Shown: one piece after another, positions 2,873 through 43,117 of the stretch | Layout: every line of letters begins with the position of its first letter | Numbering within the stretch: position 1 is the first letter of the stretch | Assembly (NCBI GenBank): GCA_900547405.1 | Contig: URGL01000002.1 | Span: forward strand, 16,563-80,562 | DNA length: 64,000 nucleotides | DNA from: an uncultured Eubacteriales bacterium | GTDB taxonomy: Bacteria; Bacillota; Clostridia; Oscillospirales; Oscillospiraceae | Direction of reading: 5' to 3' | Notes under the pieces: model-generated | The model's database searches: none | Told to the model about the DNA's origin: nothing | Seen by the model: the letters and a program-made list of their open reading frames with translations, nothing else | Made by a program: the position numbers and the translations under genes

Positions 2873-3496
2873 TTATCTTTGTAAGGGTGATACTCGGCAG
2901 GATTCCCGCACCACCTGCACCACAGTATCCGGAGCATCGGCATTCAGCTCGTGTCCGGCATGAGGGACAACATAAAGTCGGGCATTGGGAAGATATTTTG
3001 CCAGCCGCCTGGCAGCCGCAAGGTTTGGGTGGTCTTTTTCGCCGCAGGCAACGGTCACCGGGCAGTGAATGGTGCTCAACCGGTCAGTAAAATCCAGTTT
3101 TTTCATCGAGCGGGTCAAATCACGGACTTGCTCCTTTTTCATGCCTGTAGACGCGAATGCCTTGTCCGGCATACAGCGAAACAGGAGGTCCTGGATGTCC
3201 ATCAGCAGCCGGGGTGTCCTGTCTCTGGCTCCCAGCAGAACCATAGCTGCCACCTGGTCACCATGGCGGAGGGCATAATCCAGCGCCAGCATACCGCCCA
3301 GAGACAGGCCGCAGAGGCATAGGGGCTCTTTTTCATACTCGTACCGTTCTTCCAAGGAAGAGAGAATGGCGGAATAGTTCAGCTTCTCCCCCGCTATTTC
3401 AAAAAGTTCCGGGCAATCCGTATTGGGAAATTGACTGGCCACCTGGTCCCAGTCTGCCGCCCGCTGGCCCAGCCCGTGGAGAAAAACGATCTTCAT
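2873..3496 (-). CDS. alpha/beta-fold hydrolase
   Basis: 207 aa from MKIVFLHGLGQ... with GLSLGG nucleophile elbow; GGAGGG SD before ATG 3496. The longer listed ORF is an upstream extension without RBS. Confidence 0.7.
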   Translation of the reverse strand: MKIVFLHGLGQRAADWDQVASQFPNTDCPELFEIAGEKLNYSAILSSLEERYEYEKEPLCLCGLSLGGMLALDYALRHGDQVAAMVLLGARDRTPRLLMDIQDLLFRCMPDKAFASTGMKKEQVRDLTRSMKKLDFTDRLSTIHCPVTVACGEKDHPNLAAARRLAKYLPNARLYVVPHAGHELNADAPDTVVQVVRESCRVSPLQR

Positions 3497-4275
3497 TTTG
3501 TCCCCTCCTTCCGAGCATCCGCCCAAAAGCATGCCAGGGCCAGCAGCACCATGATGACGGCATTGAACAGATCCGAATAGAGGTCCACCACTCCTACCTG
3601 GGGCAGAAAGATAGCCACCAGGGCCATAACCACAAAAGGCATCGGGAGCAGGACCAGCAGCCCCACTCCCGTCGCCCGCCAGGGGCGGCCAGGGATACGT
3701 CGGCAAACCCCGTAGAGGCACCACAGGTCCGCAATAGCGGCCAGGGCAATACACCCGCCAAGGCTCAGGACTATGGGCCGCTTCAGCAGTAGGGCCAGCC
3801 CCGCCAGATAGGGAACAGGCACCAGGCTCACCATCAACAGGGTCTTAAAAAGCACCCGGTCCTTCGCCCGAAAGAAGGGCAGCAGGACACCAACCCCCAC
3901 CAGGATGGACAGCGCTACGATCCAGGACCACCCGAGCTTCCCAGAGGTGAAGTAGTCGCAGATAAAGCATACAAAGGCCCCTGTAATGCCCAAGGCAGAT
4001 ATCCACACAAAGAAGACCCGCTTTCCTTTCTCCGGCCAGCAGAAGGCCCGTCTCCCGGTCTTTCGTACCGGTTCGGCGCTGTCCTCCTTGGTCAGGTAGT
4101 CCATGGATACACCGTACAGCTCGCTGAGCCGAACCAGTATCCCCAGCTCCGGCGTGGATAGATTCAGCTCCCACTTGGATATGGTCTGCCGTGTCACGTT
4201 GACTTTCCCTGCCAAAGCCTCCTGGGATAATCCCGCCTGTTTTCTAAGCGCTTGCAGCTTTTCTCCGAGTGTCAT
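3493..4275 (-). CDS. XRE-family HTH domain protein with C-terminal multi-pass membrane domain
   Basis: MTLGEKLQALRKQAGLSQEALAGKVNVTRQTISKWE HTH followed by ~6 hydrophobic helices. GGAGGCGGGG SD; ATGA overlap with downstream hydrolase. Confidence 0.7.
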   Translation of the reverse strand: MTLGEKLQALRKQAGLSQEALAGKVNVTRQTISKWELNLSTPELGILVRLSELYGVSMDYLTKEDSAEPVRKTGRRAFCWPEKGKRVFFVWISALGITGAFVCFICDYFTSGKLGWSWIVALSILVGVGVLLPFFRAKDRVLFKTLLMVSLVPVPYLAGLALLLKRPIVLSLGGCIALAAIADLWCLYGVCRRIPGRPWRATGVGLLVLLPMPFVVMALVAIFLPQVGVVDLYSDLFNAVIMVLLALACFWADARKEGTK

Positions 4276-4449
4276 AGCTCCCCGCCTCCGTTTTCCTGTT
4301 TCCGGAACAGTATAACAGATAGGCTGCCTTTTTACCACCACTTTCGGCAAAATCCGCCCGCAACGAATCGTTGCGGGCGGGACCAATAGCTATGAAACGG
4401 AGATTGCCACACCAGTCTGCGGACTGGTGTGGCAATGGCAGCGATATTT

Positions 4450-4878
4450 TTACGGATTTTTCCGGAAGCCCTCCTCCGCCGCCTGGCGGACCTGGGCAAT
4501 CGGGATATTCTGCTCCAGGGCGATCCGGCGCAGGTCTTCGTACTCCGGCTTGAACCGGCCCTCTACGGTCTTGACCCGGACAGGCCCCCAGGGGGTTTCC
4601 GCCTGGGCGAATTCCCGGCGAAGAAGGTAGCGCCGGTGCTCCGTCTGACGGATGCCGAGGGTGGTGGTGTGCCGAAAGAGGCACTGGGCCAGTTCTTCCT
4701 TCCGGTCTTCCCTGCTCAGGACGCTGAGCTGGATCCCCGGGCGGTTTTTCTTCATGCCGATGGGGGTGGTCCACACATCCAAGGCACCGGCATCCAGGAG
4801 CCGCTCCATGGCAAAGGCTATGTCCTCCGGGGTCATATCGTCCAGATTGCAGCTGAGCTCCCACACCGTGTCCGTCAT
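4450..4878 (-). CDS. larC: LarC C-terminal domain-like protein (nickel-pincer cofactor Ni-insertase, C-domain only)
   Basis: 142 aa; CNLDDMTPEDIAFAMERLLDAGALDVWTTPIGMKKNRPG matches the conserved LarC/DUF111 C-terminal block. The N-terminal ~260 aa domain is not encoded here. GGAGG SD; ATGA overlap with larB. Confidence 0.6.
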   Translation of the reverse strand: MTDTVWELSCNLDDMTPEDIAFAMERLLDAGALDVWTTPIGMKKNRPGIQLSVLSREDRKEELAQCLFRHTTTLGIRQTEHRRYLLRREFAQAETPWGPVRVKTVEGRFKPEYEDLRRIALEQNIPIAQVRQAAEEGFRKNP

Positions 4879-5630
4879 CTTCGAGCCTCCATATGGTTCA
4901 TCATGCTGGCCAGATATCCCGCCCCAAAGCCATTGTCGATGTTCACCACAGACACACCGCTGGCGCAGGAGTTGAGCATGCTCAGAAGGGCCGCCAGGCC
5001 GCCGAAGGCCGTGCCGTAGCCCACGCTGGTGGGCACCGCGATCACCGGGCAGTCGCACAGGCCGCCGATGACGCTGGCCAGAGCCCCTTCCATACCGGCA
5101 ATGGCTACCACTACGCTGGCATCCATCAGCTCCTGGCTATGGGCCATAAGCCGGTGGATACCGGAGACACCTACATCATAGAGCCGCACCACCTCGTTGC
5201 CCAGGAACTCCGCCGTCAGGGCCGCCTCCTCGGACACAGGGATATCGCTGGTGCCGCCGGTGGCAATGACGATCCTGCCCATGCCCCAGGGCTTGGCCAT
5301 GCCGCCGGAAATGGCCAGGTTGGCATTTTCATAGTAGGTGATAGGAACCTGGGTCCCCACAAATTTCGCTTTTTCCGGAGATATCCGGGTAATGAGCACA
5401 TTTTCCTGACCGTTTTCCCGGAGGCTCCTGATGATCCCGGCAATCTGCTGGGCGGTCTTTCCGGCTCCGTAGATCACCTCTCCGGCTCCCTGGCGGAGGC
5501 GGCGGTGGAGATCCACCTTGGCATAACCGATATCCTCAAAGGGCTTCTGCTTCAGGTGAAGCAGGGCCTGGTCCACAGACATGGATCCATTCTGGACCCC
5601 CAGCAGGACCTCTCGCACCTCACTGTCCAT
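4875..5630 (-). CDS. larB: LarB, nickel-pincer nucleotide biosynthesis carboxylase/hydrolase (PurE-like)
   Basis: 251 aa; N-domain plus PurE-like core with VVAIAGMEGALASVIGG and VIAVPTSVGYG, typical of LarB. Confidence 0.8.
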   Translation of the reverse strand: MDSEVREVLLGVQNGSMSVDQALLHLKQKPFEDIGYAKVDLHRRLRQGAGEVIYGAGKTAQQIAGIIRSLRENGQENVLITRISPEKAKFVGTQVPITYYENANLAISGGMAKPWGMGRIVIATGGTSDIPVSEEAALTAEFLGNEVVRLYDVGVSGIHRLMAHSQELMDASVVVAIAGMEGALASVIGGLCDCPVIAVPTSVGYGTAFGGLAALLSMLNSCASGVSVVNIDNGFGAGYLASMMNHMEARR

Positions 5631-34418: not shown

Positions 34419-35891
34419 ATGAAAAAGCTCTCCTTCCGTCTTCTGGCCGAAACCGTAAAGACAATGCGCAAGGAAAAGGGGCTGACCCAGATCGATCTGG
34501 CGAAACTCACCGGCATCAATCGCTCTATGATCGGCCAGCTGGAAAATATGACCTTCAAGCCCTCCATTGAGCAGCTGGAGGCTCTGGCAGAGGCTCTGGA
34601 CTTTGACATTACCAATCTGTATGTGGACGATGCCAAATCCACCCCCAAGGCCGCCCCCGCCAAGCGATACAAGGTGGCCGTGGCCGGTACGGGCTATGTG
34701 GGTCTGTCCATCGCCACCTTGCTGAGCCAGCACAACCACGTCACCGCCGTGGACATTATCCCGGAAAAGGTGGACCTCATCAATAAGCGCAAATCCCCCA
34801 TTCAGGACGAGTACATCGAAAAGTACCTGGCGGAAAAGGACCTGGATCTGACCGCCACGCTGGATGGGGAATCCGCCTACCGGGACGCGGACTTTGTGGT
34901 CATTGCCGCCCCCACCAACTACGACAGCAAGAAGAACTACTTTGACACCTCCGCCGTGGAGGCCGTCATCGAGCTGGTGCTGAAGGTGAACCCCAATGCC
35001 ACCATGGTCATCAAGTCCACCATTCCTGTTGGCTACACTGCCTCCGTCCGGGAGAAATATGGCACCGCCAACATTCTCTTCAGCCCGGAGTTCCTGCGGG
35101 AGAGCAAGGCCCTGTACGACAACCTCTACCCCAGCCGGATCATTGTCTCCTGCGATGCTGAGAGCCGGGAAAAGGCTGAGATTTTCGCTTCCTTGCTGCA
35201 GCAAGGTGCCATCAAAGAGGATATCCCCACCCTGTTCATGGGCTTTACCGAGGCCGAGGCCGTAAAGCTCTTTGCCAACACCTATCTGGCCCTGCGGGTC
35301 AGCTACTTCAACGAGCTGGACACCTATGCCGAGACCAAGGGGCTATGCACCAAGGACATCATCGACGGCGTATGCCTGGACCCCCGGATCGGCACCCACT
35401 ACAATAACCCCAGCTTCGGTTACGGCGGCTACTGCCTGCCCAAGGACACCAAGCAGTTGCTTGCCAACTTTGAAAATGTGCCCCAGAACATGATGACCGC
35501 CATTGTGGAAAGCAACCGGACCCGAAAGGACTTCATCGCCGACCAGGTGCTGGAAATCGCCGGGGGCTATGAAGCCAACGACAGCTGGAGCGCCAGCAAG
35601 GAGGGCGAGACCGTGGTAGGCGTGTACCGGCTGACCATGAAGGCCAACTCCGACAACTTCCGTCAGAGCGCCATCCAGGGCGTTATGAAGCGCATCAAGG
35701 CCAAGGGTGCCACCGTCATCATCTATGAGCCCACCCTAAAGGACGGCGAGACCTTCTTCGGCTCCAAGGTGGTCAACGATCTGGAAAAATTCAAAAAGCA
35801 GTCCCACTGCATCATCGCCAACCGGTACGATCCCTGCCTGGACGATGTGCAGGACAAGGTCTTCACCCGGGACATCTTCAAGCGGGACTGA
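34419..35891 (+). CDS. ugd: UDP-glucose 6-dehydrogenase fused to an N-terminal XRE-type helix-turn-helix domain
   Basis: 490 aa; residues 1-70 form an XRE HTH ([23 protein letters not shown]); the remainder is full-length Ugd ([12 protein letters not shown] Rossmann, GGYCLPKD catalytic Cys). Confidence 0.85.
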
Positions 35892-37000: not shown

Positions 37001-37003
37001 ATG

Positions 37004-38200
37004 TTATACCGGTTCTGCGAAGGTATCCGGGTGGCCTGGGTCGAAGACCTCATCGCAGGTCATGACGGTTACCAGGTCCTCGGTATCGCTCAGGTTGATA
37101 ATGTTGTGGGTCCAGCCGGGGATCATGTAGACGGCCTCGATTTTCTCGCCGGAAACTTCAAATTCTACCGTCTCCCCCGTGTGAATGTTCCGCTCCTGGA
37201 TCAGGCCGTGGCCGTGGACCACGATGAACTGCTCCCACTTGGAGTTGTGCCAGTGCTGGCCCTTGGTGATGCCGGGCTTGGAGATGTTGATGCTCACCTG
37301 GCCGCAGTCGGCGGTGTGGATCAGCTCCGTGAAGCTGCCCCGGGCATCGCAGTTCATTTTCATGGCGTACTTGAACTTCTCCTTGGGCAGGTAAGTCAGG
37401 TACAGGCTGAACAGCTTCTTGGCAAAGCTGCCATCGGGGATCCTGGGCATGAGAAGGGATACCGGCTGGTTTTTGAACTGGGCCAGCAGGTCCACGATTT
37501 CACCCAAGGTAACCTTGTGAGAACCGGGGACGCAGCAGTAGCGGCCATCCTCGGTAAGAACAGTCTCTACGCCGTCAAACTCGCAGTGCTGCTCCTTGCC
37601 CTCCAGGAGGTCAAACATTCCCTCCACCAGGTCGTCAATGTAGAGAACTTCCAGCTCCGTGGACCGGTCATTGACGGTAAAGGGTTCGTCGTTGGCTACC
37701 GCCCAGCAGAAGGTGGAAATGGCGCTGTTATACTTGGGGCGGCTGTGGCCCATGAGGTTGACGAAGCGATAGACGGCAACCTTTGCCCCGGTTTCCTTGG
37801 CGTAATCGAAGAACAGCTCCTCCCCCGCTTTCTTGCTCCGGCCATACTCGGAGTTGCCGAACCGACCGGCCAGAGTGGCCTGGACAGAGGAGGACAGCAT
37901 AATGGTTGCCTTGTTGCTGTGCTTTTTCAGGCAGTTCAGCAGGTCGGAGGCAAAGCCAAAGTTGCCCTTCATAAAGTCCTCAGGATTCTCCGGGCGGTTC
38001 ACACCGGCCAGATTGAAGACGAAGTCGGCTTTGGCGCAATACCCGTCCAGCTCTTCCGGGGTGGACTGCATGTCGTACTCGTAGATCTCGTCAATATGGA
38101 TATTGGGCCGGGTGCGGTTTTTGCCGTCCCGGATATTTTTCAGGTTGGCGCACAGGGCGGTTCCCACCATGCCCCTTGCGCCGGTGACCAGGATGTTCAT
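37004..38200 (-). CDS. fnlB: Cap5F/WbjC/FnlB-like reductase (SDR N-domain plus cupin C-domain)
   Basis: 398 aa; ILVTGARGMVG Rossmann and C-terminal cupin (QHWHNSKWEQFIVVHGHG) as in Cap5F. Confidence 0.75.
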   Translation of the reverse strand: MNILVTGARGMVGTALCANLKNIRDGKNRTRPNIHIDEIYEYDMQSTPEELDGYCAKADFVFNLAGVNRPENPEDFMKGNFGFASDLLNCLKKHSNKATIMLSSSVQATLAGRFGNSEYGRSKKAGEELFFDYAKETGAKVAVYRFVNLMGHSRPKYNSAISTFCWAVANDEPFTVNDRSTELEVLYIDDLVEGMFDLLEGKEQHCEFDGVETVLTEDGRYCCVPGSHKVTLGEIVDLLAQFKNQPVSLLMPRIPDGSFAKKLFSLYLTYLPKEKFKYAMKMNCDARGSFTELIHTADCGQVSINISKPGITKGQHWHNSKWEQFIVVHGHGLIQERNIHTGETVEFEVSGEKIEAVYMIPGWTHNIINLSDTEDLVTVMTCDEVFDPGHPDTFAEPV

Positions 38201-39388
38201 TTAGTACTTCCTCCACACCATCTTATTGACTACGTTTACATAACCCTGGATGATGCGCACTACCTTCATGGAAACAGTCTCATCCACATAGTCGGGGCAG
38301 GGCTTGCCCAGGATGCCCTTCTGTTTCATCTCGATGGCCATATCCGTTGCGTTCAGCAGCTCCCGGGTGGTGATGCCGGCCAGGATGAAGTCCCCGGCTT
38401 CCAGGGCCTCGGGGCGCTCGGTGGAGGTGCGGATGCACACGGCGGCAATGGGGTGGCCGATGGAGAGATAGAAGCTGCTCTCCTCCGGCAGGGTGCCGGA
38501 GTCGGAGACAATGGCCAGGGCGTTCATTTGCAGCTTGTTGTAGTCATTGAAGCCCAGGGGCTCGTTGACCCGGACTCTGGGGTCCAGCCGGAAGCCGCTC
38601 TTCTCCAGCCGGTGACGGCTTCTGGGGTGGCAGGAATAGAGGATGGGCATATCATACTTCTCTGCCAGGGCATTGATGGCGGTGAAGAGGCTCAGGAAGT
38701 TCTGCTCGGAGTCGATGTTTTCCTCCCGGTGGGCAGACAGGAGAATATACTTATCCTTTTCCAGCCCCAGGCGCTCCAGCACATCGCTCTTGCGGATCTT
38801 GTCCAGATTCATGTGCAGCACCTCCGCCATGGGAGAGCCGGTCATGTAGGTCCGCTCTTTGGGCAGGCCCGTGTCTGCCAGATACTTCCGGGCAAACTCA
38901 CTGTAGCACAGGTTCACGTCGGAGATCACGTCCACGATCCGGCGGTTGGTCTCCTCCGGCAGGCACTCGTCCTTGCAGCGGTTGCCGGCCTCCATGTGGA
39001 AAAGGGGGATGTGCAGCCGCTTGGCGCTGATGGCGGAGAGGCAACTGTTGGTATCCCCCAGCACCAAGTAGCCCTCCGGCTGCAATTCGGCCAGCAGCTC
39101 ATAGCTGCGGCCCAGGATGTTGCCGCAGGTCACCCCCAGGTTCTCCCCCACCACAGGCACCAGAATGTCCGGGCCAAATTCCCCGAAGGTGTTCTTCAGC
39201 TCGAAATCCTCCCAGAACACGGTGCTCAGGTTCCGGTCCCAGTTCTGGTTGTAGTAGACCACGCAGCAGTCAAAATATTCCCGGCAGCGCTTGATGACGG
39301 CGGCCAGCCGGATGATCTCCGGCCGGGTGCCGCAGCCGATCATGATTTTGGTGCGGCCGTTGTTTTTCCATTTGAAGTTGTGTTCCAT
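38201..39388 (-). CDS. fnlC: UDP-N-acetylglucosamine 2-epimerase family (Cap5G/WbjD/FnlC-like, non-hydrolysing)
   Basis: ~395 aa; GTRPEIIRL N-terminus and C-terminal epimerase_2 blocks. Confidence 0.8.
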   Translation of the reverse strand: MEHNFKWKNNGRTKIMIGCGTRPEIIRLAAVIKRCREYFDCCVVYYNQNWDRNLSTVFWEDFELKNTFGEFGPDILVPVVGENLGVTCGNILGRSYELLAELQPEGYLVLGDTNSCLSAISAKRLHIPLFHMEAGNRCKDECLPEETNRRIVDVISDVNLCYSEFARKYLADTGLPKERTYMTGSPMAEVLHMNLDKIRKSDVLERLGLEKDKYILLSAHREENIDSEQNFLSLFTAINALAEKYDMPILYSCHPRSRHRLEKSGFRLDPRVRVNEPLGFNDYNKLQMNALAIVSDSGTLPEESSFYLSIGHPIAAVCIRTSTERPEALEAGDFILAGITTRELLNATDMAIEMKQKGILGKPCPDYVDETVSMKVVRIIQGYVNVVNKMVWRKY

Positions 39389-39389
39389 A

Positions 39390-40424
39390 TCATTTCTCCG
39401 CCAGCCGCTGCCGGATGTAGCCCAGGGAGGCGATGGTATCGATGGTCTCCTGCAAATTTAAGCGGCGGGTGTTGTTGGAGTTGAACTCCGTCAGGGTGTT
39501 CCGCTTGTCGTCGCCCTCTTTGAAGTACTTATCGTAGTTCAGCCCCCGGTTGTCGGCGGGGACCCGGTAGAAGTCCCCCATGTCGATGGCCTTGGCGCAC
39601 TCCTCGTTGGTGAGGAGGGTCTCGTACATCTTCTCGCCGTGGCGGATGCCGATGACCTTGATCTCCTCTTTCTTGCCGCCGAAGAGCTCGCAGACGGCTT
39701 CCGCCTGGGTCCGGATGGTGCAGGCGGGGGCCTTCTTGATGAGCAGGTCGCCGTTCTCGCCGTGCTCAAAGGCGAAGAGCACCAGGTCCACGGCCTCTTC
39801 CAGGGACATGATGAACCGGGTCATGTTGGGCTCGGTGACGGTGATGGGATTGCCGGATCTGATCTGGTCGATCCACAGGGGGATGACGGAGCCCCGGGAG
39901 CACATGACGTTGCCGTAGCGGGTGCAGCAGATCTTCGTCTTGCCGGACATTCTGGATTTGGCAATGGCCACCTTTTCCTCAATGGCCTTGGACATGCCCA
40001 TGGCGTTGATGGGGTAGGCGGCCTTGTCGGTGGACAGGCAGATGACGCACTCCACCCCGGCCTCGATGGCGGCGGTGAGGACATTGTCCGTGCCGATGAC
40101 GTTGGTCCGCACGGCTTCCATGGGGAAGAACTCGCAGGAGGGCACCTGCTTCAGGGCGGCGGCGTGGAAGATATAGTCCACCCCGGTCATGGCCCCCCGG
40201 ACGGATTGCAGGTCCCGGACGTCGCCAATGTAAAACTTGATTTTGTTCGCCACCTCCGGCATTCTGGCCTGGTACTCGTGGCGCATGTCGTCCTGCTTCT
40301 TCTCATCCCGGGAGAAGATGCGGATCTCGCCAATGTCCGTGGCCAGGAAGCGGTTTAAAACGGCGTTACCGAAGGAGCCGGTACCGCCGGTGATCATCAG
40401 GGTTTTGTTTTTAAAAAGAGACAT
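39390..40424 (-). CDS. fnlA: Cap5E/WbjB/FnlA-like UDP-GlcNAc 4,6-dehydratase/5,3-epimerase (CapD-like SDR)
   Basis: 344 aa from MSLFKNKTLMITGGTGSFGN (GGAGGA SD). Its RBS and first 19 codons lie inside the 75 bp direct repeat. Confidence 0.85.
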   Translation of the reverse strand: MSLFKNKTLMITGGTGSFGNAVLNRFLATDIGEIRIFSRDEKKQDDMRHEYQARMPEVANKIKFYIGDVRDLQSVRGAMTGVDYIFHAAALKQVPSCEFFPMEAVRTNVIGTDNVLTAAIEAGVECVICLSTDKAAYPINAMGMSKAIEEKVAIAKSRMSGKTKICCTRYGNVMCSRGSVIPLWIDQIRSGNPITVTEPNMTRFIMSLEEAVDLVLFAFEHGENGDLLIKKAPACTIRTQAEAVCELFGGKKEEIKVIGIRHGEKMYETLLTNEECAKAIDMGDFYRVPADNRGLNYDKYFKEGDDKRNTLTEFNSNNTRRLNLQETIDTIASLGYIRQRLAEK

Positions 40425-40440
40425 GATGTGTCCTCCATTC
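40366..40440. repeat. 75 bp direct repeat, copy 1 (RBS plus 5' end of fnlA), flanking the Abi cassette
   Basis: ttaccgaaggagccggtaccgccggtgatcatcagggttttgtttttaaaaagagacatgatgtgtcctccattc is identical to 41693-41767. Confidence 0.9.
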
Positions 40441-40537
40441 AATCATATTTTTTCTTATTGAACAAGGCAATTGTAACAAATACACTGCACAACAGTTTTT
40501 TGACAGCGATATTTGATAGAGTAGAATTTCTTTGCAC

Positions 40538-40566
40538 TTGACAATTTTGATACAATCCACTATAAT
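40538..40566 (+). promoter_or_regulatory. consensus sigma-70 promoter TTGACA-17-TATAAT driving the Abi gene
   Basis: cTTGACAattttgatacaatccacTATAATg in an AT-rich insert; then AGAGGTG SD and ATG 40653. Confidence 0.6.
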
Positions 40567-40652
40567 GTTTGCAATAGAACCCGCCACGCCTAGTCATGTT
40601 CCCATGAATGCGCAACCCGGCGGGACTTTTTGTATTTATAGAGGTGCGCAAT

Positions 40653-41558
40653 ATGTACCAGTATCCAAAAAATATCCAGAACACCGCACAGCTATTGCAA
40701 AAGTGGAGCAATGCTGGGATGCAGATCACCGCAAACGACAATGCCGAAGAAACCCTTGATCAGGTTGGGTATTATCGTCTCAAAGGCTACGCTTTTCACC
40801 TGTACGACAAATCATCCGGAAAATTTGAGACCGGTGTGACCTTTGCGAAGGTTGCAAACATTTACAGGTTTGATTCCGCGTTATCAAATCTTGTGTTCAG
40901 TTTCATTGCGCAAATTGAGGTATCGCTTCGTGCCCGGCTTGTTTCTGCGCTTTTGCTCCATGGAGATGCATTGGTTCTAAATGACCCGTCTATATTTTCA
41001 GAGAAAGACAAGTATTGGAAAAATCAGGGTACCATCGCATCTGAAATCGCACGATCAAATGATGTGTTTATAAAGCACAACTTCCGTCAATACGATGGGG
41101 CTGTCCCGCTCTGGGCCTCTGTTGAGGTAATGTCATTCGGCACGCTCTCTAAAGTGATCAAAAACCTCAAGCCTACCACTGCCGAATACAAAGCATTGGT
41201 TCAACATTACAGATTTATCGGACCGTCCGGCAAATACATTGTTCCCTCACAAAAAATGTTCACGTCGTGGATCCAGTCCGTCTCCGTAATGCGGAATATC
41301 TGTGCGCATAACAGCAGGATTTATAATAGGGCTATCAGTACCGCGCCCCAATTGACGCAATTAGATTTCGTCAATCCGCAGCCGCAATACAATGGCCTGT
41401 ATCAAATCCTTTTGGCCATGAAATACCTTCGTCCGTCAGACAATGCGTGGAATTCTTTTGTTGCAAAGCTCAATGGGTTGTTCTCGCAATACCCGGCCGT
41501 CGTTGATCTCACCCGACTAAATTTTCCGTCAGACTGGCGTGATCATTTTAAGCTTTAA
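40653..41558 (+). CDS. Abi_2-family abortive-infection protein (AbiD/AbiF-like, HEPN Rx4H motif)
   Basis: 301 aa; GYYRLKGYAF, SALLLHGDA and MRNICAHNSRIYN (R-x4-H HEPN motif) are characteristic of Abi_2/AbiD/F proteins. Low GC relative to flanks. Confidence 0.8.
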   Translation: MYQYPKNIQNTAQLLQKWSNAGMQITANDNAEETLDQVGYYRLKGYAFHLYDKSSGKFETGVTFAKVANIYRFDSALSNLVFSFIAQIEVSLRARLVSALLLHGDALVLNDPSIFSEKDKYWKNQGTIASEIARSNDVFIKHNFRQYDGAVPLWASVEVMSFGTLSKVIKNLKPTTAEYKALVQHYRFIGPSGKYIVPSQKMFTSWIQSVSVMRNICAHNSRIYNRAISTAPQLTQLDFVNPQPQYNGLYQILLAMKYLRPSDNAWNSFVAKLNGLFSQYPAVVDLTRLNFPSDWRDHFKL

Positions 41559-41654
41559 GTTCCGGAATATTTCCACCCCCTGTCACATATACTATCCATT
41601 ACAGAGCTGATCAAGCCTCTCAAAGACGCTCAAATCGGTCAGCCTTTCTGTGGC

Positions 41655-41694
41655 CGCCCCAGCAGTTCATTTCAGACTGCTGGGGCGGTTTTTA
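41655..41694 (+). terminator. intrinsic terminator of the Abi cassette
   Basis: ccgccccagcag-ttcatttcagac-tgctggggcgg then ttttt. Confidence 0.75.
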
Positions 41695-41767
41695 CCGAAG
41701 GAGCCGGTACCGCCGGTGATCATCAGGGTTTTGTTTTTAAAAAGAGACATGATGTGTCCTCCATTCT
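41693..41767. repeat. 75 bp direct repeat, copy 2 (orphaned RBS plus 19 codons of fnlA, reading into cassette end)
   Basis: Identical 75-mer; encodes MSLFKNKTLMITGGTGSFG then out-of-context KNRPSSLK-stop. Confidence 0.9.
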
Positions 41768-41779
41768 TATGTTTGGCAT

Positions 41780-42328
41780 TCAAAAGACCGGCTCCAGCAG
41801 GTCCACCTTCTCGCCGCCGCGGAAGACCCGCTTGATCCGCAGGTTTGTCCGGTTTTCGCCTTTGAACTCGGCCCGGAGAATGTAGCCCGAGGGGTAGTGA
41901 AAGTCCCACTTGGTGTCGGTCAGCTTCTGCAGGCGGTTTTCCTCCGCCTTGTTGCCCTCCTGCTTTCCGGCGGCCTTCACCTCGGCGCACAGGACATTCA
42001 CGGGAGGGATACCGGCGGCCTCGTCGCCCCGCTTGCGAATGAGTATATCCAGGCCCAGGTGGGGCCGCTGTCTTGTCTTCTTCGCGGTGATGTCCACCCC
42101 CACCACCAGCCGTCCGTACTCCATGTCCACCACGTAATCCTCGATACGGCGCATCCACAGAAAGAACTGCAAATAGAAGGCGATCCGGGCAGAGACCATC
42201 AGCCGGTCAAAGGGCTGCGTCAGCAGATCCTGGTCATGGCGGTTGAACTGGGCCACCGCGTACATCATCATATAGTCATGGAGCGCCGGATTCTGGGGCA
42301 CGGGAATGGAATAATCTGGGGCTTTCAT
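41780..42328 (-). CDS. hypothetical protein, paralog 1 of a tandem pair; putative PD-(D/E)xK (restriction-endonuclease-like) fold
   Basis: 182 aa; shares with the 42508-43005 product the pattern ER..x..R.A.YL...Y.VD.EY.R...D(L/I)(L/I)I(R/H)KRG...N(V/L)(L/I)C(A/M)E(V/M)K...A.E.RL.K.TD...F.Y..G...L.IK..FR.G, compatible with E / hhhD / hhhExK nuclease motifs. Confidence 0.45.
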   Translation of the reverse strand: MKAPDYSIPVPQNPALHDYMMMYAVAQFNRHDQDLLTQPFDRLMVSARIAFYLQFFLWMRRIEDYVVDMEYGRLVVGVDITAKKTRQRPHLGLDILIRKRGDEAAGIPPVNVLCAEVKAAGKQEGNKAEENRLQKLTDTKWDFHYPSGYILRAEFKGENRTNLRIKRVFRGGEKVDLLEPVF

Positions 42329-42384
42329 GGGCGGTTGTGCTCCTTTTCATGTAGTATTTGATTCTCTTTGGGTATTATAATCGA

Positions 42385-42422
42385 AACCGCGAGAATTGGC
42401 AAGCAATTCTCGCGGGTTTTTG
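42385..42422. terminator. strong hairpin between the two paralogs
   Basis: aaaccgcgagaattg-gcaag-caattctcgcgggttttt, a perfect 13 bp stem with A/T flanks. Confidence 0.45.
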
Positions 42423-42507
42423 TACAGGAGATGGTAAATTGTTTGGGTGTCCCATCGGGCGTTTGCTGGATTCCCGGACTGGGGAAGTCAGAGAGGGGCT
42501 ATTGCGG

Positions 42508-43005
42508 TCATTGAGGGGGGATATGTACTCCATTGCGGAATATGCTTTTGATTGTCAACGCACATTGCTTCATATCCGCTACGATCATGAAGCCGGTCTT
42601 GTAGTTGAAGCCATAGTCCGGGTCGGTCATCTTCCCCAAGCGGGCTTCGTCTGCGTCACATCCATCCCGGTTGGTGCTTTTCTTCATTTCCATACAAATC
42701 AGATTCTGGTAGCCCATTTCATTGTCGTATCCGCGTTTATGAATGATTAGGTCTACTACAATCAAATCGTCATTCAAGCGCTTTGGGCTCCGGTCGTGGC
42801 CGTCCATGCCGCGATTGTACTCTACGTCCACTGTGTACCCTTCGGCCTGGTATACCGAGAGCTGCTTTTCCAGGTACATGGCGAATCTGGCGCAGATGCA
42901 GCGTTCACTGAGATTGGCTTCCAGGAGGTATCGTTCGTGGAGGTTGAAGTCGGCCAGGGCGGCTTGGACCAGGGCGTGGTGGATAGTGGGGGATAGAGTT
43001 GGCAT
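42508..43005 (-). CDS. hypothetical protein, paralog 2 of the tandem pair; putative PD-(D/E)xK fold
   Basis: 165 aa; see paralog 1. ERCICARFAMYLE / YTVDVEYNR / VVDLIIHKRG / NLICMEMKK. Confidence 0.45.
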   Translation of the reverse strand: MPTLSPTIHHALVQAALADFNLHERYLLEANLSERCICARFAMYLEKQLSVYQAEGYTVDVEYNRGMDGHDRSPKRLNDDLIVVDLIIHKRGYDNEMGYQNLICMEMKKSTNRDGCDADEARLGKMTDPDYGFNYKTGFMIVADMKQCALTIKSIFRNGVHIPPQ

Positions 43006-43117
43006 GGGGGGACCTCTTTTTTGATTATAATACCGTTCACGCTTAAAACCTCTTTATTCTTCATCTGGATCCTCTATAGTAGTGCAGACTAAATCAAAGA
43101 TTCCCTAATGTAATCTC

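Follow-up and report, generated by a model that had tools for sequence, protein, structure and literature searches.

A predicted AbiF-type toxin–antitoxin cassette between 75-bp direct repeats in the capsule locus of an uncultured Oscillospiraceae bacterium

Genes and repeats at the capsule locus

The stretch of DNA considered here, referred to as the window, comprises 64,000 nucleotides of contig URGL01000002.1 (positions 16,563 to 80,562 of the forward strand; assembly GCA_900547405.1) from an uncultured Eubacteriales bacterium of the family Oscillospiraceae. Within a capsule locus of the window, a compact cassette with a gene of the Abi_2 family and predicted regulatory RNAs lies between a gene for an FnlA-like UDP-GlcNAc 4,6-dehydratase/5-epimerase and a gene for a protein of 182 amino acids, and is bounded on both sides by an identical direct repeat of 75 bp (Table 1). 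On the strength of its predicted parts the cassette is assigned to the AbiF-type type III toxin–antitoxin (TA) modules, and it is present at this site in some members of the source species and absent from others.

A repeat finder applied to positions 39000-43000 returned the 75-nt pair as the single long repeat family of that interval. The two copies, R1 and R2, are 100% identical, lie 1326 bp apart from start to start, and neither can be extended by even one base. The insert between them, initially measured as 1252 bp (40441-41692), is 1251 bp long. Its GC content of 44.4%, against 58.8% in the fnlA-fnlC-fnlB genes on its left and 59.9% in the 182-aa gene on its right, agrees with the low-GC cassette between perfect repeats that the initial annotation had described. 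R1 heads the intact epimerase gene, with its ribosome-binding site (RBS) and first 19 codons, and R2 heads an orphan stub, translated as MSLFKNKTLMITGGTGSFGKNRPSSLK and a stop, that reads into the cassette terminator; this arrangement, too, is as first annotated. No terminal inverted repeats were found at the cassette ends in the repeat search of the window, and no open reading frame (ORF) of the cassette other than that of the Abi protein matches a protein family, the remainder being short overlapping frames.

The gene headed by R1 is FnlA-like only, accompanied by FnlC-like and FnlB/CapF-like neighbours. Its score of 500.2 bits on TIGR04130, the FnlA equivalog model, lies below the 730-bit cutoff, so that the earlier naming of the target after FnlA holds as a likeness and not at the equivalog level. 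All of the neighbouring polysaccharide genes lie on the minus strand and the Abi gene on the plus strand, an opposition that had already been recognised for most of the nearby surface-polysaccharide genes.

Table 1. Positions of the cassette, its parts and the adjoining genes in the window
Feature	Position	Strand	Remarks
CapF/FnlB-like gene	37004-38200	-	next after the 2-epimerase gene
UDP-GlcNAc 2-epimerase gene (FnlC-like)	38201-39388	-	adjoins the FnlA-like gene
FnlA-like UDP-GlcNAc 4,6-dehydratase/5-epimerase gene	39390-40424	-	344 aa, intact; Pfam Polysacc_synt_2 (3e-105) and Polysacc_syn_2C
Direct repeat copy 1 (R1)	40366-40440		Shine-Dalgarno (SD) GGAGG 40436-40432, ATG 40424, first 19 fnlA-like codons
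Cassette	40441-41691	+	1251 bp, 44.4% GC; absent from nine related contigs
Promoter-like site toward fnlA (doubtful), TTGCCT-17-TATGAT	40442-40470	-	9/12 match
Promoter P1, TTGACA-17-TATAAT	40538-40566	+	12/12 match
abiF RNA motif 1, 5' leader	40580-40625	+	hairpin CCCGCC...GGCGGG, then ACTTTTT; RF03085 31.1 bits, E 0.0034
AbiF-type toxin gene (Abi_2/HEPN)	40653-41558	+	301 aa; RBS AGAGGTG 40640-40646
-10-like box TATACT	41588-41593	+	7 nt upstream of ACAGAGC, which opens the second abiF RNA
abiF RNA motif 2	41607-41643	+	3' of the toxin gene; RF03085 33.5 bits, E 0.00084
Rho-independent terminator	41652-41693	+	16 predicted pairs, 7-nt loop, then TTTTT; last two T are the first bases of R2
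Orphan stub ORF	41667-41750	-	27 codons; MSLFKNKTLMITGGTGSFG then KNRPSSLK and stop; ends inside the cassette terminator (translation)
Direct repeat copy 2 (R2), orphan	41692-41766		original context kept: 13-nt spacer and stop codon of the 182-aa gene
182-aa gene, outside the cassette	41780-42328	-	directly precedes fnlA in empty sites (29-nt gap)

The predicted toxin and its RNAs

The cassette protein is an AbiD/AbiF-type HEPN protein and, as judged by its motif and relatives, a predicted RNase toxin. It matches the Pfam family Abi_2 (PF07751) with an E-value of 8.8e-47 and 160.2 bits against a cutoff of 25.6, over profile positions 2-184 of 184, and the PADLOC model AbiD with 5.1e-86 and 286.8 bits; NCBIfam returned no model for it. 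The closest characterised protein found is PbAbiF (PDB 8VZ6), with an E-value of 1.8e-30 in a full-length alignment covering residues 4-297. The Rx4H motif of the HEPN domain, R214-N-I-C-A-H219, is invariant in 25 relatives and aligns with the RNSCCH motif of PbAbiF, in which R210 and H215 are reported to be catalytic and needed for activity (PMC12373285). The Abi_2/AbiD-F-like gene and the HEPN motif of the initial annotation are thus borne out, the family match being highly significant.

What had been described as a phage-defence gene in cassette form is, however, more than a gene, because two abiF RNA motifs are added to it. The first follows the promoter P1, whose agreement with the consensus at 12 of 12 positions is as originally read; both P1 and its spacing to motif 1 are conserved across 56 different sequences of related cassettes. 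The predicted order is P1, motif 1 with its ACTTTTT, the RBS from 40640 and the ATG at 40653, the toxin ORF having no separate promoter, and this is the layout of AbiF loci. The stem and U-run of motif 1 are predicted to act as an attenuator and to form the antitoxin RNA, with read-through setting the amount of toxin. The second motif lies on the other side of the gene and is present in 98 of the 130 related loci; the order of promoter, motif 1, gene, motif 2 and terminator likewise holds in 98 of 130. Comparison among relatives supports the RNAs strongly: both motif classes share one consensus hairpin, with compensatory changes in seven of its nine pairs in a joint alignment of 26 sequences, and among related cassettes the motif regions are 79–92% identical in DNA, compared with ~70% for the gene. 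Both of the RF03085 matches in the cassette nevertheless fall below the gathering score of 37, which is a point against the identification.

Motif 2 would appear to be an independently transcribed small RNA. The -10-like box stands at the same distance from the second RNA as the -10 of P1 from the first (7 nt), and a CATATAmTAT box (41586-41595) is conserved at a fixed distance across related cassettes; it is from this box that promoter activity is presumed. The terminator closes the second abiF RNA. Its hairpin occupies 41652-41689, with core stem arms at 41654-41665 and 41677-41688, and although it was missed by a simple terminator scanner, the fold of 41601-41696 has a free energy of -46.8 kcal/mol (z -6.4), in keeping with the strong rho-independent terminator first proposed. 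At 38 nt upstream of P1 there is another promoter-like site, TTGACA-16-TAGAAT (40500-40527, plus strand, 11/12), but the related contig L158 lacks this part of the cassette, so that the site does not belong to the conserved part of the unit. An Rfam match to Spot 42 was dismissed as noise (19.8 bits vs 80).

It is the combination of an Abi_2 HEPN gene, two candidate RF03085 motifs and the order of promoter, RNA, terminator and toxin that assigns the cassette to the AbiF type III TA systems; toxicity, neutralisation by RNA and phage defence are attributed to it by analogy. The sigma-70 promoter would drive a short structured abiF RNA, attenuated by its stem and U-run, and the 301-aa toxin, an HEPN RNase, would be made by read-through; beyond its gene would come the second abiF RNA, which has a -10-like box and ends in the strong terminator. 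By analogy with AbiFCd/RCd22 and PbAbiF/AbiFr, the RNAs would bind and silence the toxin dimer, and phage infection or loss of the locus would free the RNase. In the characterised AbiF systems, the abiF-motif RNA is transcribed together with the HEPN toxin, to which it binds directly and which it thereby neutralises, and the AbiF dimer carries two copies of the RNA (PMC12373285, PMC12737573). AbiFCd/RCd22 itself, an AbiF type III TA system, belongs to the phi027 prophage of Clostridioides difficile (Saunier et al., PLoS Genet 2025; PMC12373285).

Allele states of the site and origin of the repeat

An exact look-up of the 182-aa protein returned nine places in independent metagenome assemblies where no Abi gene is present, one further place being the window's own contig. 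At these nine empty sites (L006-L015) the stop codon of the 182-aa gene is followed by 29 nt and the fnlA ATG, and the 75-mer region occurs once in an unbroken context, reading ...CAAACATAA, 75-mer, CGCCGTTTT..., with the same TTATGTTTGGCAT spacer after the 75-mer as stands beside R2. The 75-mer is exact in six of the nine and differs by a single base in three. From the 182-aa gene through the fnl genes the empty contigs share 97-98% identity with the window, and the capsule genes that they carry upstream of the 182-aa gene are different and variable. The flanking repeats are identical to a single-copy target for which a precise empty site exists. A single repeat copy in relatives without the insert is what the initial annotation had predicted for clean excision, and no relative was found with a duplicated 75-mer and no Abi gene.

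The filled form is found beyond the window, which is 100% identical to a 98.8-kb contig of a metagenome-assembled genome (MAG; GCA_052310635.1), with three further long contigs grouped as similar places. Both cassette junctions (fnlA body/75-mer/cassette and cassette/75-mer) occur in Logan contigs from at least eight runs, and a second cassette allele, 99% identical with 13-16 differences per 1.3 kb, shares both junctions in five or more further sequencing runs. Among the 18 contigs represented in the comparison with relatives, two carry the insertion. The module is thus a presence/absence polymorphism in the source species, placed between the 182-aa and FnlA-like genes and antisense to the capsule operon, and the insertion structure is real and old enough for ~1% divergence. 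An assembly artefact, in which an empty chromosome and a separate 1326-bp circle or some other context had been joined through the 75-bp repeat, is most improbable. The window does derive from a MAG, and Logan contigs, built at k=31, break at the repeat and leave the order unresolved (L003 consists of the cassette and 30 nt on each side). Nevertheless, the arrangement is the same in four contigs that exceed 20 kb and come from different assemblies, and the whole 75-mer is traversed both by L246, which runs from the fnlA body into the cassette, and by L248, which leaves the cassette through it. The same topology, moreover, recurs in unrelated assemblies of the L019/L251 insertion described below, and any circle would still derive from an integrated form.

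A third allele state, filled and repeat-less, is seen in the lineage of L158, L159 and L160, whose Abi protein is 77% identical to that of the window and whose cassette lies at the same place, between the start of the FnlA-like gene and the stop of the 182-aa homologue. The fnl operon of this lineage is 87.6% and its 182-aa gene 70.6% identical to the window, and no flanking repeat was found in it. At the fnlA side the junctions of the window and L158 are homologous, both reading CCTCCAT(T)C and then, after 0 or 7 nt, TTTTTTsTTATT. At the other side the L158 terminator is followed by 14 nt and the stop codon, and that of the window by the 75-mer, the 13-nt spacer and the stop codon. Since R1 and R2 are identical at 100% in both window-type alleles, whereas the cassettes of the window and L158 are ~25% diverged, the duplication is taken to be much younger than the junction of cassette and fnlA. 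The possibility that the 75-mer is a primary duplication as old as the insertion was rejected on the same grounds. Of the mini-cassette with a long target duplication that was first proposed, the duplication accordingly stands; that it is the primary footprint of a transposition is probably incorrect, given that the L158 lineage has the same position without a repeat.

The arrangement in the window cannot be derived from the repeat-less allele by one template switch, which would give 75-mer, cassette, 75-mer and cassette, so that an empty-type template, with the 75-mer followed by the spacer, is required. At the junction with R2 the T-run of the terminator is joined to codon 19/20 of fnlA (GGCGGTTT/TTACCG) with ~2 nt of microhomology, and a second homologous crossover would have met an obstacle in the 182-aa gene, which is only 70.6% identical between the two lineages. 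On balance it is probable that a foreign AbiF TA module was inserted by a two-step event, partly homologous and partly illegitimate, with the 75-mer as the target duplication. A cassette already lying directly upstream of fnlA in a related genome would have moved into an empty allele, one side being resolved by homologous recombination in the conserved 5' end of fnlA and the other by illegitimate joining of the terminator T-run to codon 19/20 through the ~2 nt of microhomology. Such a pathway would amount to homology-facilitated illegitimate recombination (HFIR) or, equivalently, to Campbell-type insertion-duplication of a circle made up of the cassette and one 75-mer, and the duplication would keep one complete fnlA ribosome-binding site and start. 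The three allele states and the junction sequences are observed, and the order of events and the recombination pathway read from them are probably those just given.

Several observations weigh against this two-step insertion. No tract of donor single-nucleotide polymorphisms was found in fnlA beside the cassette when the window was compared with the nine empty alleles, and the 21 window-private differences in 5.6 kb are not clustered near the cassette; if there was a homologous exchange, it must have been short or have involved a donor of nearly the same sequence. No repeat-less allele with a window-type cassette was found among the sequences compared. The 7-nt indel between the fnlA-side junctions is compatible with two independent site-directed insertions, and the recurrence of long flanking duplications at other sites hints at a process more systematic than rare accidents.

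Replication template switching, resembling microhomology-mediated break-induced replication or fork stalling and template switching (MMBIR/FoSTeS), would also produce variable and at times long duplications with ill-defined ends at hairpins. In such a process a fork from an empty allele would jump to an ectopic copy of the cassette and return 75 bp behind its point of departure, and the closest relatives of the cassette, which are phage morons between portal and TerL genes, are possible donors. It is nonetheless considered quite unlikely: a random switch is not expected to share its fnlA-side junction with L158, there is no second copy of the cassette within the 64-kb window, and the microhomology at the junction is only ~2 nt.

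The effect of the insertion on transcription of fnlA is a separate matter. The initial annotation held that the end of the cassette supplies fnlA with a promoter, TTGCCT-17-TATGAT, but this is not credible, as the site matches the consensus at 9 of 12 positions and its -10 ends at 40442, 5 nt before the SD sequence, which places the predicted start inside the SD sequence itself. The L158 homologue, moreover, lacks the 7 nt (AATCATA) from which this -10 is formed. Read-through from the capsule operon into fnlA, antisense to the Abi gene, is possible because the terminator hairpin has no U-tract on the minus strand. The insertion parts the fnl genes from the upstream capsule operon and could alter the expression of surface glycans in carriers.

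Other features of the neighbourhood were noted. The 182-aa gene and a 165-aa gene (42508-43005, minus strand) are paralogous (34% identity, E 2e-28) and have no match in Pfam or NCBIfam, but the 165-aa gene matches the PADLOC candidate defence protein PD-Lambda-3_A (3.3e-13), and together with the Abi cassette the two paralogues form a small defence cluster inside the capsule locus. In the empty relatives (L006-L015, ~3300-5000; window ~42330-43100) the space that separates the flippase gene from the 182-aa gene is occupied by small genes that vary from strain to strain, among them 165-171-aa paralogues, a PhdYeFM antitoxin pair, a Transposase_31/Rpn-like gene and VanZ, and represents a hot spot at the border between the variable (~40% GC) and conserved (59% GC) halves of the capsule locus. 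A 490-aa UDP-glucose/GDP-mannose dehydrogenase (window ~34419-35891; L001 10534-12006) carries an N-terminal HTH_3 (XRE-type) domain, an unusual fusion of enzyme and regulator that is kept in all related capsule loci. An 827-aa plus-strand ORF at 37001-39484 is an antisense shadow of the high-GC fnl genes and not a gene; in L159, too, gene callers predicted comparable ORFs on the antisense strand.

Insertions elsewhere and known systems

Long duplications are also found around related cassettes. In L019, an Oscillospiraceae MAG, a cassette of the same architecture, whose Abi protein is 57% identical to that of the window, lies in a 194-bp repeat (one mismatch, 183 bp exact) that corresponds to the 3' end and terminator of an SseB-like gene, beside tRNA-Leu. 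In L251, which is 92-94% identical to L019, this insertion is found again, its repeat there measuring 148 bp (98% identity), and L252-L254 (77% identical) have the SseB-like gene once and no cassette. Exact flanking repeats of at least 12 bp occur in seven of 35 site clusters, compared with 23 of 1190 null pairs (~2%) in which flanks from different sites were paired, and ~80% of the site clusters have no repeat above chance. In every case compared, the terminator is followed within 0-45 nt by the right end of the cassette. Different insertions have no conserved cassette ends, and their repeats resemble one another in neither sequence nor length. One of the seven repeat-bearing clusters is doubtful: the 15-bp 'duplication' of L096, L097 and L098 was not counted, as TTTAATCTTTTTTATA follows the terminator in all members whatever the left flank and may be part of the element, as a conserved right end. 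A 32-bp repeat in L089, first counted as a target duplication, was not retained as verified, nor were a 25-bp repeat in L109 (copies 2.9 kb apart), the imperfect repeats of L033, L017 and L045 and the terminal repeat of L155.

Relatives are also carried by phages. A scan of viral contigs returned five close relatives only, and Abi cassettes of ~70% identity lie in prophages, antisense between the portal and TerL genes (L161 4001-4906, L164 4001-4906, L256 3501-4406). In L161 an orphan 41-bp copy (88%) of the TerL 3' region stands at 3828-3868, upstream of the promoter, and a RelB/ParE pair adjoins the cassette. As further observations, the Abi cassettes of L155 (1-3032) and L033 (5640-7400) adjoin genes that, on inspection of the translation by eye, resemble Rpn-type PD-(D/E)xK nucleases. 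The two ends of L155, a contig of 3032 bp, match each other (66-178 and 2920-3032, 98%), and a 2.85-kb circle or a unit between the upstream regions of paralogues is possible there. In L257 (4591-7921) an Abi cassette of 67% identity is immediately adjoined by a run of three large serine recombinase genes.

The recurrence of such duplications could be explained by a mobile element that is not autonomous and depends on an unrecognised enzyme acting in trans, one that makes wide, variably staggered cuts or target-primed copies and so leaves target duplications of variable length (13 to ~190 bp), the L158 form having later lost the orphan copy. Two insertions with matched empty sites and long duplications, of 75 bp in the window and 148-194 bp in L019/L251, would fit this explanation, as would the excess of flanking repeats over the null pairs, the constant position of the right end and the CATT-TTAT that L158 keeps after its terminator as a possible remnant of repeat end and spacer. 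It is nevertheless rather unlikely. The cassette encodes no transposase, integrase or reverse transcriptase, the Abi gene being its only real ORF; it has neither terminal inverted repeats nor any sequence shared at the ends between insertions; most site clusters have no repeat; and the 15-bp duplication of the L097 group is the common right-end sequence of all its members. Furthermore, the complete identity of R1 and R2, beside cassettes that are 23% diverged in protein, argues that the duplication is younger than the insertion site. The marks by which a transposon is recognised, namely an encoded transposase, inverted repeats or conserved termini and a fixed, short target-site duplication, are thus lacking, the last because the duplications measure 75 bp in the window and 148-194 bp in L251/L019, with none in L158.

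There is correspondingly little probability that the AbiF cassettes of this clade are, in general, ~1.2-kb non-autonomous mobile elements propagated by a trans-acting nuclease or recombinase, or by target-primed copying, with long variable duplications (13 to ~190 bp), and a dedicated mechanism for making long staggered duplications is likewise doubtful. If the former were true, AbiF elements, whether in a phage or in a chromosome, would enter between genes or at the end of a gene and spare the target gene. To our knowledge, no such mode of insertion has been described for bacterial defence or TA modules. Retro-transposition through an RNA intermediate, considered because the right end follows the terminator, was rejected as the principal explanation, as the cassette includes its own promoter and 25-100 nt upstream.

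Site-specific integration would require a circular cassette with the 75-mer as an attP-like block and a recombinase encoded elsewhere, R1 and R2 then being attL and attR. The direct repeat is indeed identical to the target and restores the gene end, as in islands that integrate at gene ends, precise empty sites exist, two lineages share the position of the cassette within 7 nt, and one relative adjoins the three large serine recombinase genes mentioned above. Integrase islands, however, are defined by a cognate recombinase and a common att core. No recombinase is present in the cassette or within ~6 kb on either side of it in the window, the repeats of the other insertions are too different in sequence and length to contain a common core, and the L158 form has no second att copy, all of which makes this explanation improbable.

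The AbiF cassette is viewed here as a passively moved, selectable and addictive module, whose insertions survive best when the neighbouring gene is left unbroken, and for this reason a passive model favours events that duplicate a gene end. A one-gene defence or addiction module would in this way move as a compact unit of promoter, RNA, toxin, RNA and terminator. Its sites include capsule loci, the neighbourhood of tRNA genes and the space between phage packaging genes, and it can enter an operon without destroying the neighbouring gene. That one site is known in an empty state, a repeat-less filled state and a filled state with the 75-bp repeat makes it a rare natural record of an insertion that was probably homologous on one side and illegitimate on the other.

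Among known systems, the cassette is closest to AbiFCd/RCd22 and PbAbiF/AbiFr (8VZ6), with which it shares an Abi_2/HEPN toxin with an Rx4H motif. Like AbiFCd/RCd22, it combines a sigma-70 promoter, a predicted abiF RNA, an attenuator and read-through to the toxin, with two candidate abiF motifs (31-33 bits on RF03085, under the gathering score) in the locus and carriage on mobile DNA. The motifs are placed differently, one on each side of the gene in the cassette and both within a single upstream RNA in RCd22 of C. difficile, and the downstream motif of the cassette has, unlike RCd22, a -10-like box and its own terminator. The split abiF RNAs of most clade members suggest a testable variant of AbiF regulation. 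AbiFCd lies in a lysis module, in contrast to the capsule operon that holds the cassette.

The lactococcal proteins AbiD, AbiD1 and AbiF are the plasmid-borne founders of Pfam Abi_2, and the AbiF family has been proposed as ancestral to Cas13. The cassette protein belongs to the same Pfam and PADLOC family as these distant relatives, abortive-infection proteins encoded by single genes, but its gene is chromosomal. The ToxIN/AbiQ-type type III TA systems also pair a protein RNase toxin with a cis-encoded structured RNA, with a terminator setting the ratio of the two. The toxin fold is unrelated, the cassette having a HEPN and not a ToxN-like protein, and the tandem RNA repeats upstream of the ToxIN toxin contrast with the two single flanking motifs found here.

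Phage morons are autonomous units of promoter, gene and terminator between phage genes, as described by Hendrix and colleagues. The cassette is moron-like in having its own promoter and terminator, a deviant GC content and an antisense orientation to the operon, and qualifies as such a unit. Its location does not fit, as the copy in the window lies in a capsule locus, where the genes identified within ~6 kb on either side serve polysaccharide synthesis and none is phage-like; it is the relatives in L161, L164 and L256 that lie between portal and TerL, a position typical of morons. We know of no description of morons as carrying long target duplications.

As to the manner of insertion, HFIR as defined in PMC3240628 and insertion-duplication resemble the site in having one homologous junction and another that is novel with minimal microhomology, and in leaving an orphan fragment beside an intact gene. 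The displacement of type VI secretion system effector-immunity modules in Vibrio cholerae (PMC5361080) is a natural analogue of this process. For the cassette the process is deduced from three allele types, with no donor polymorphism tract found in the comparison with the empty alleles.

The pairing of an AbiF toxin with an abiF RNA antitoxin is already known, having been described in 2025, and the window holds a further member of this group. What is less usual is the split placement of the RNAs, the position in a capsule locus beside two PD-Lambda-3_A-like genes, the recurrent long duplications and the three allele states at one site.

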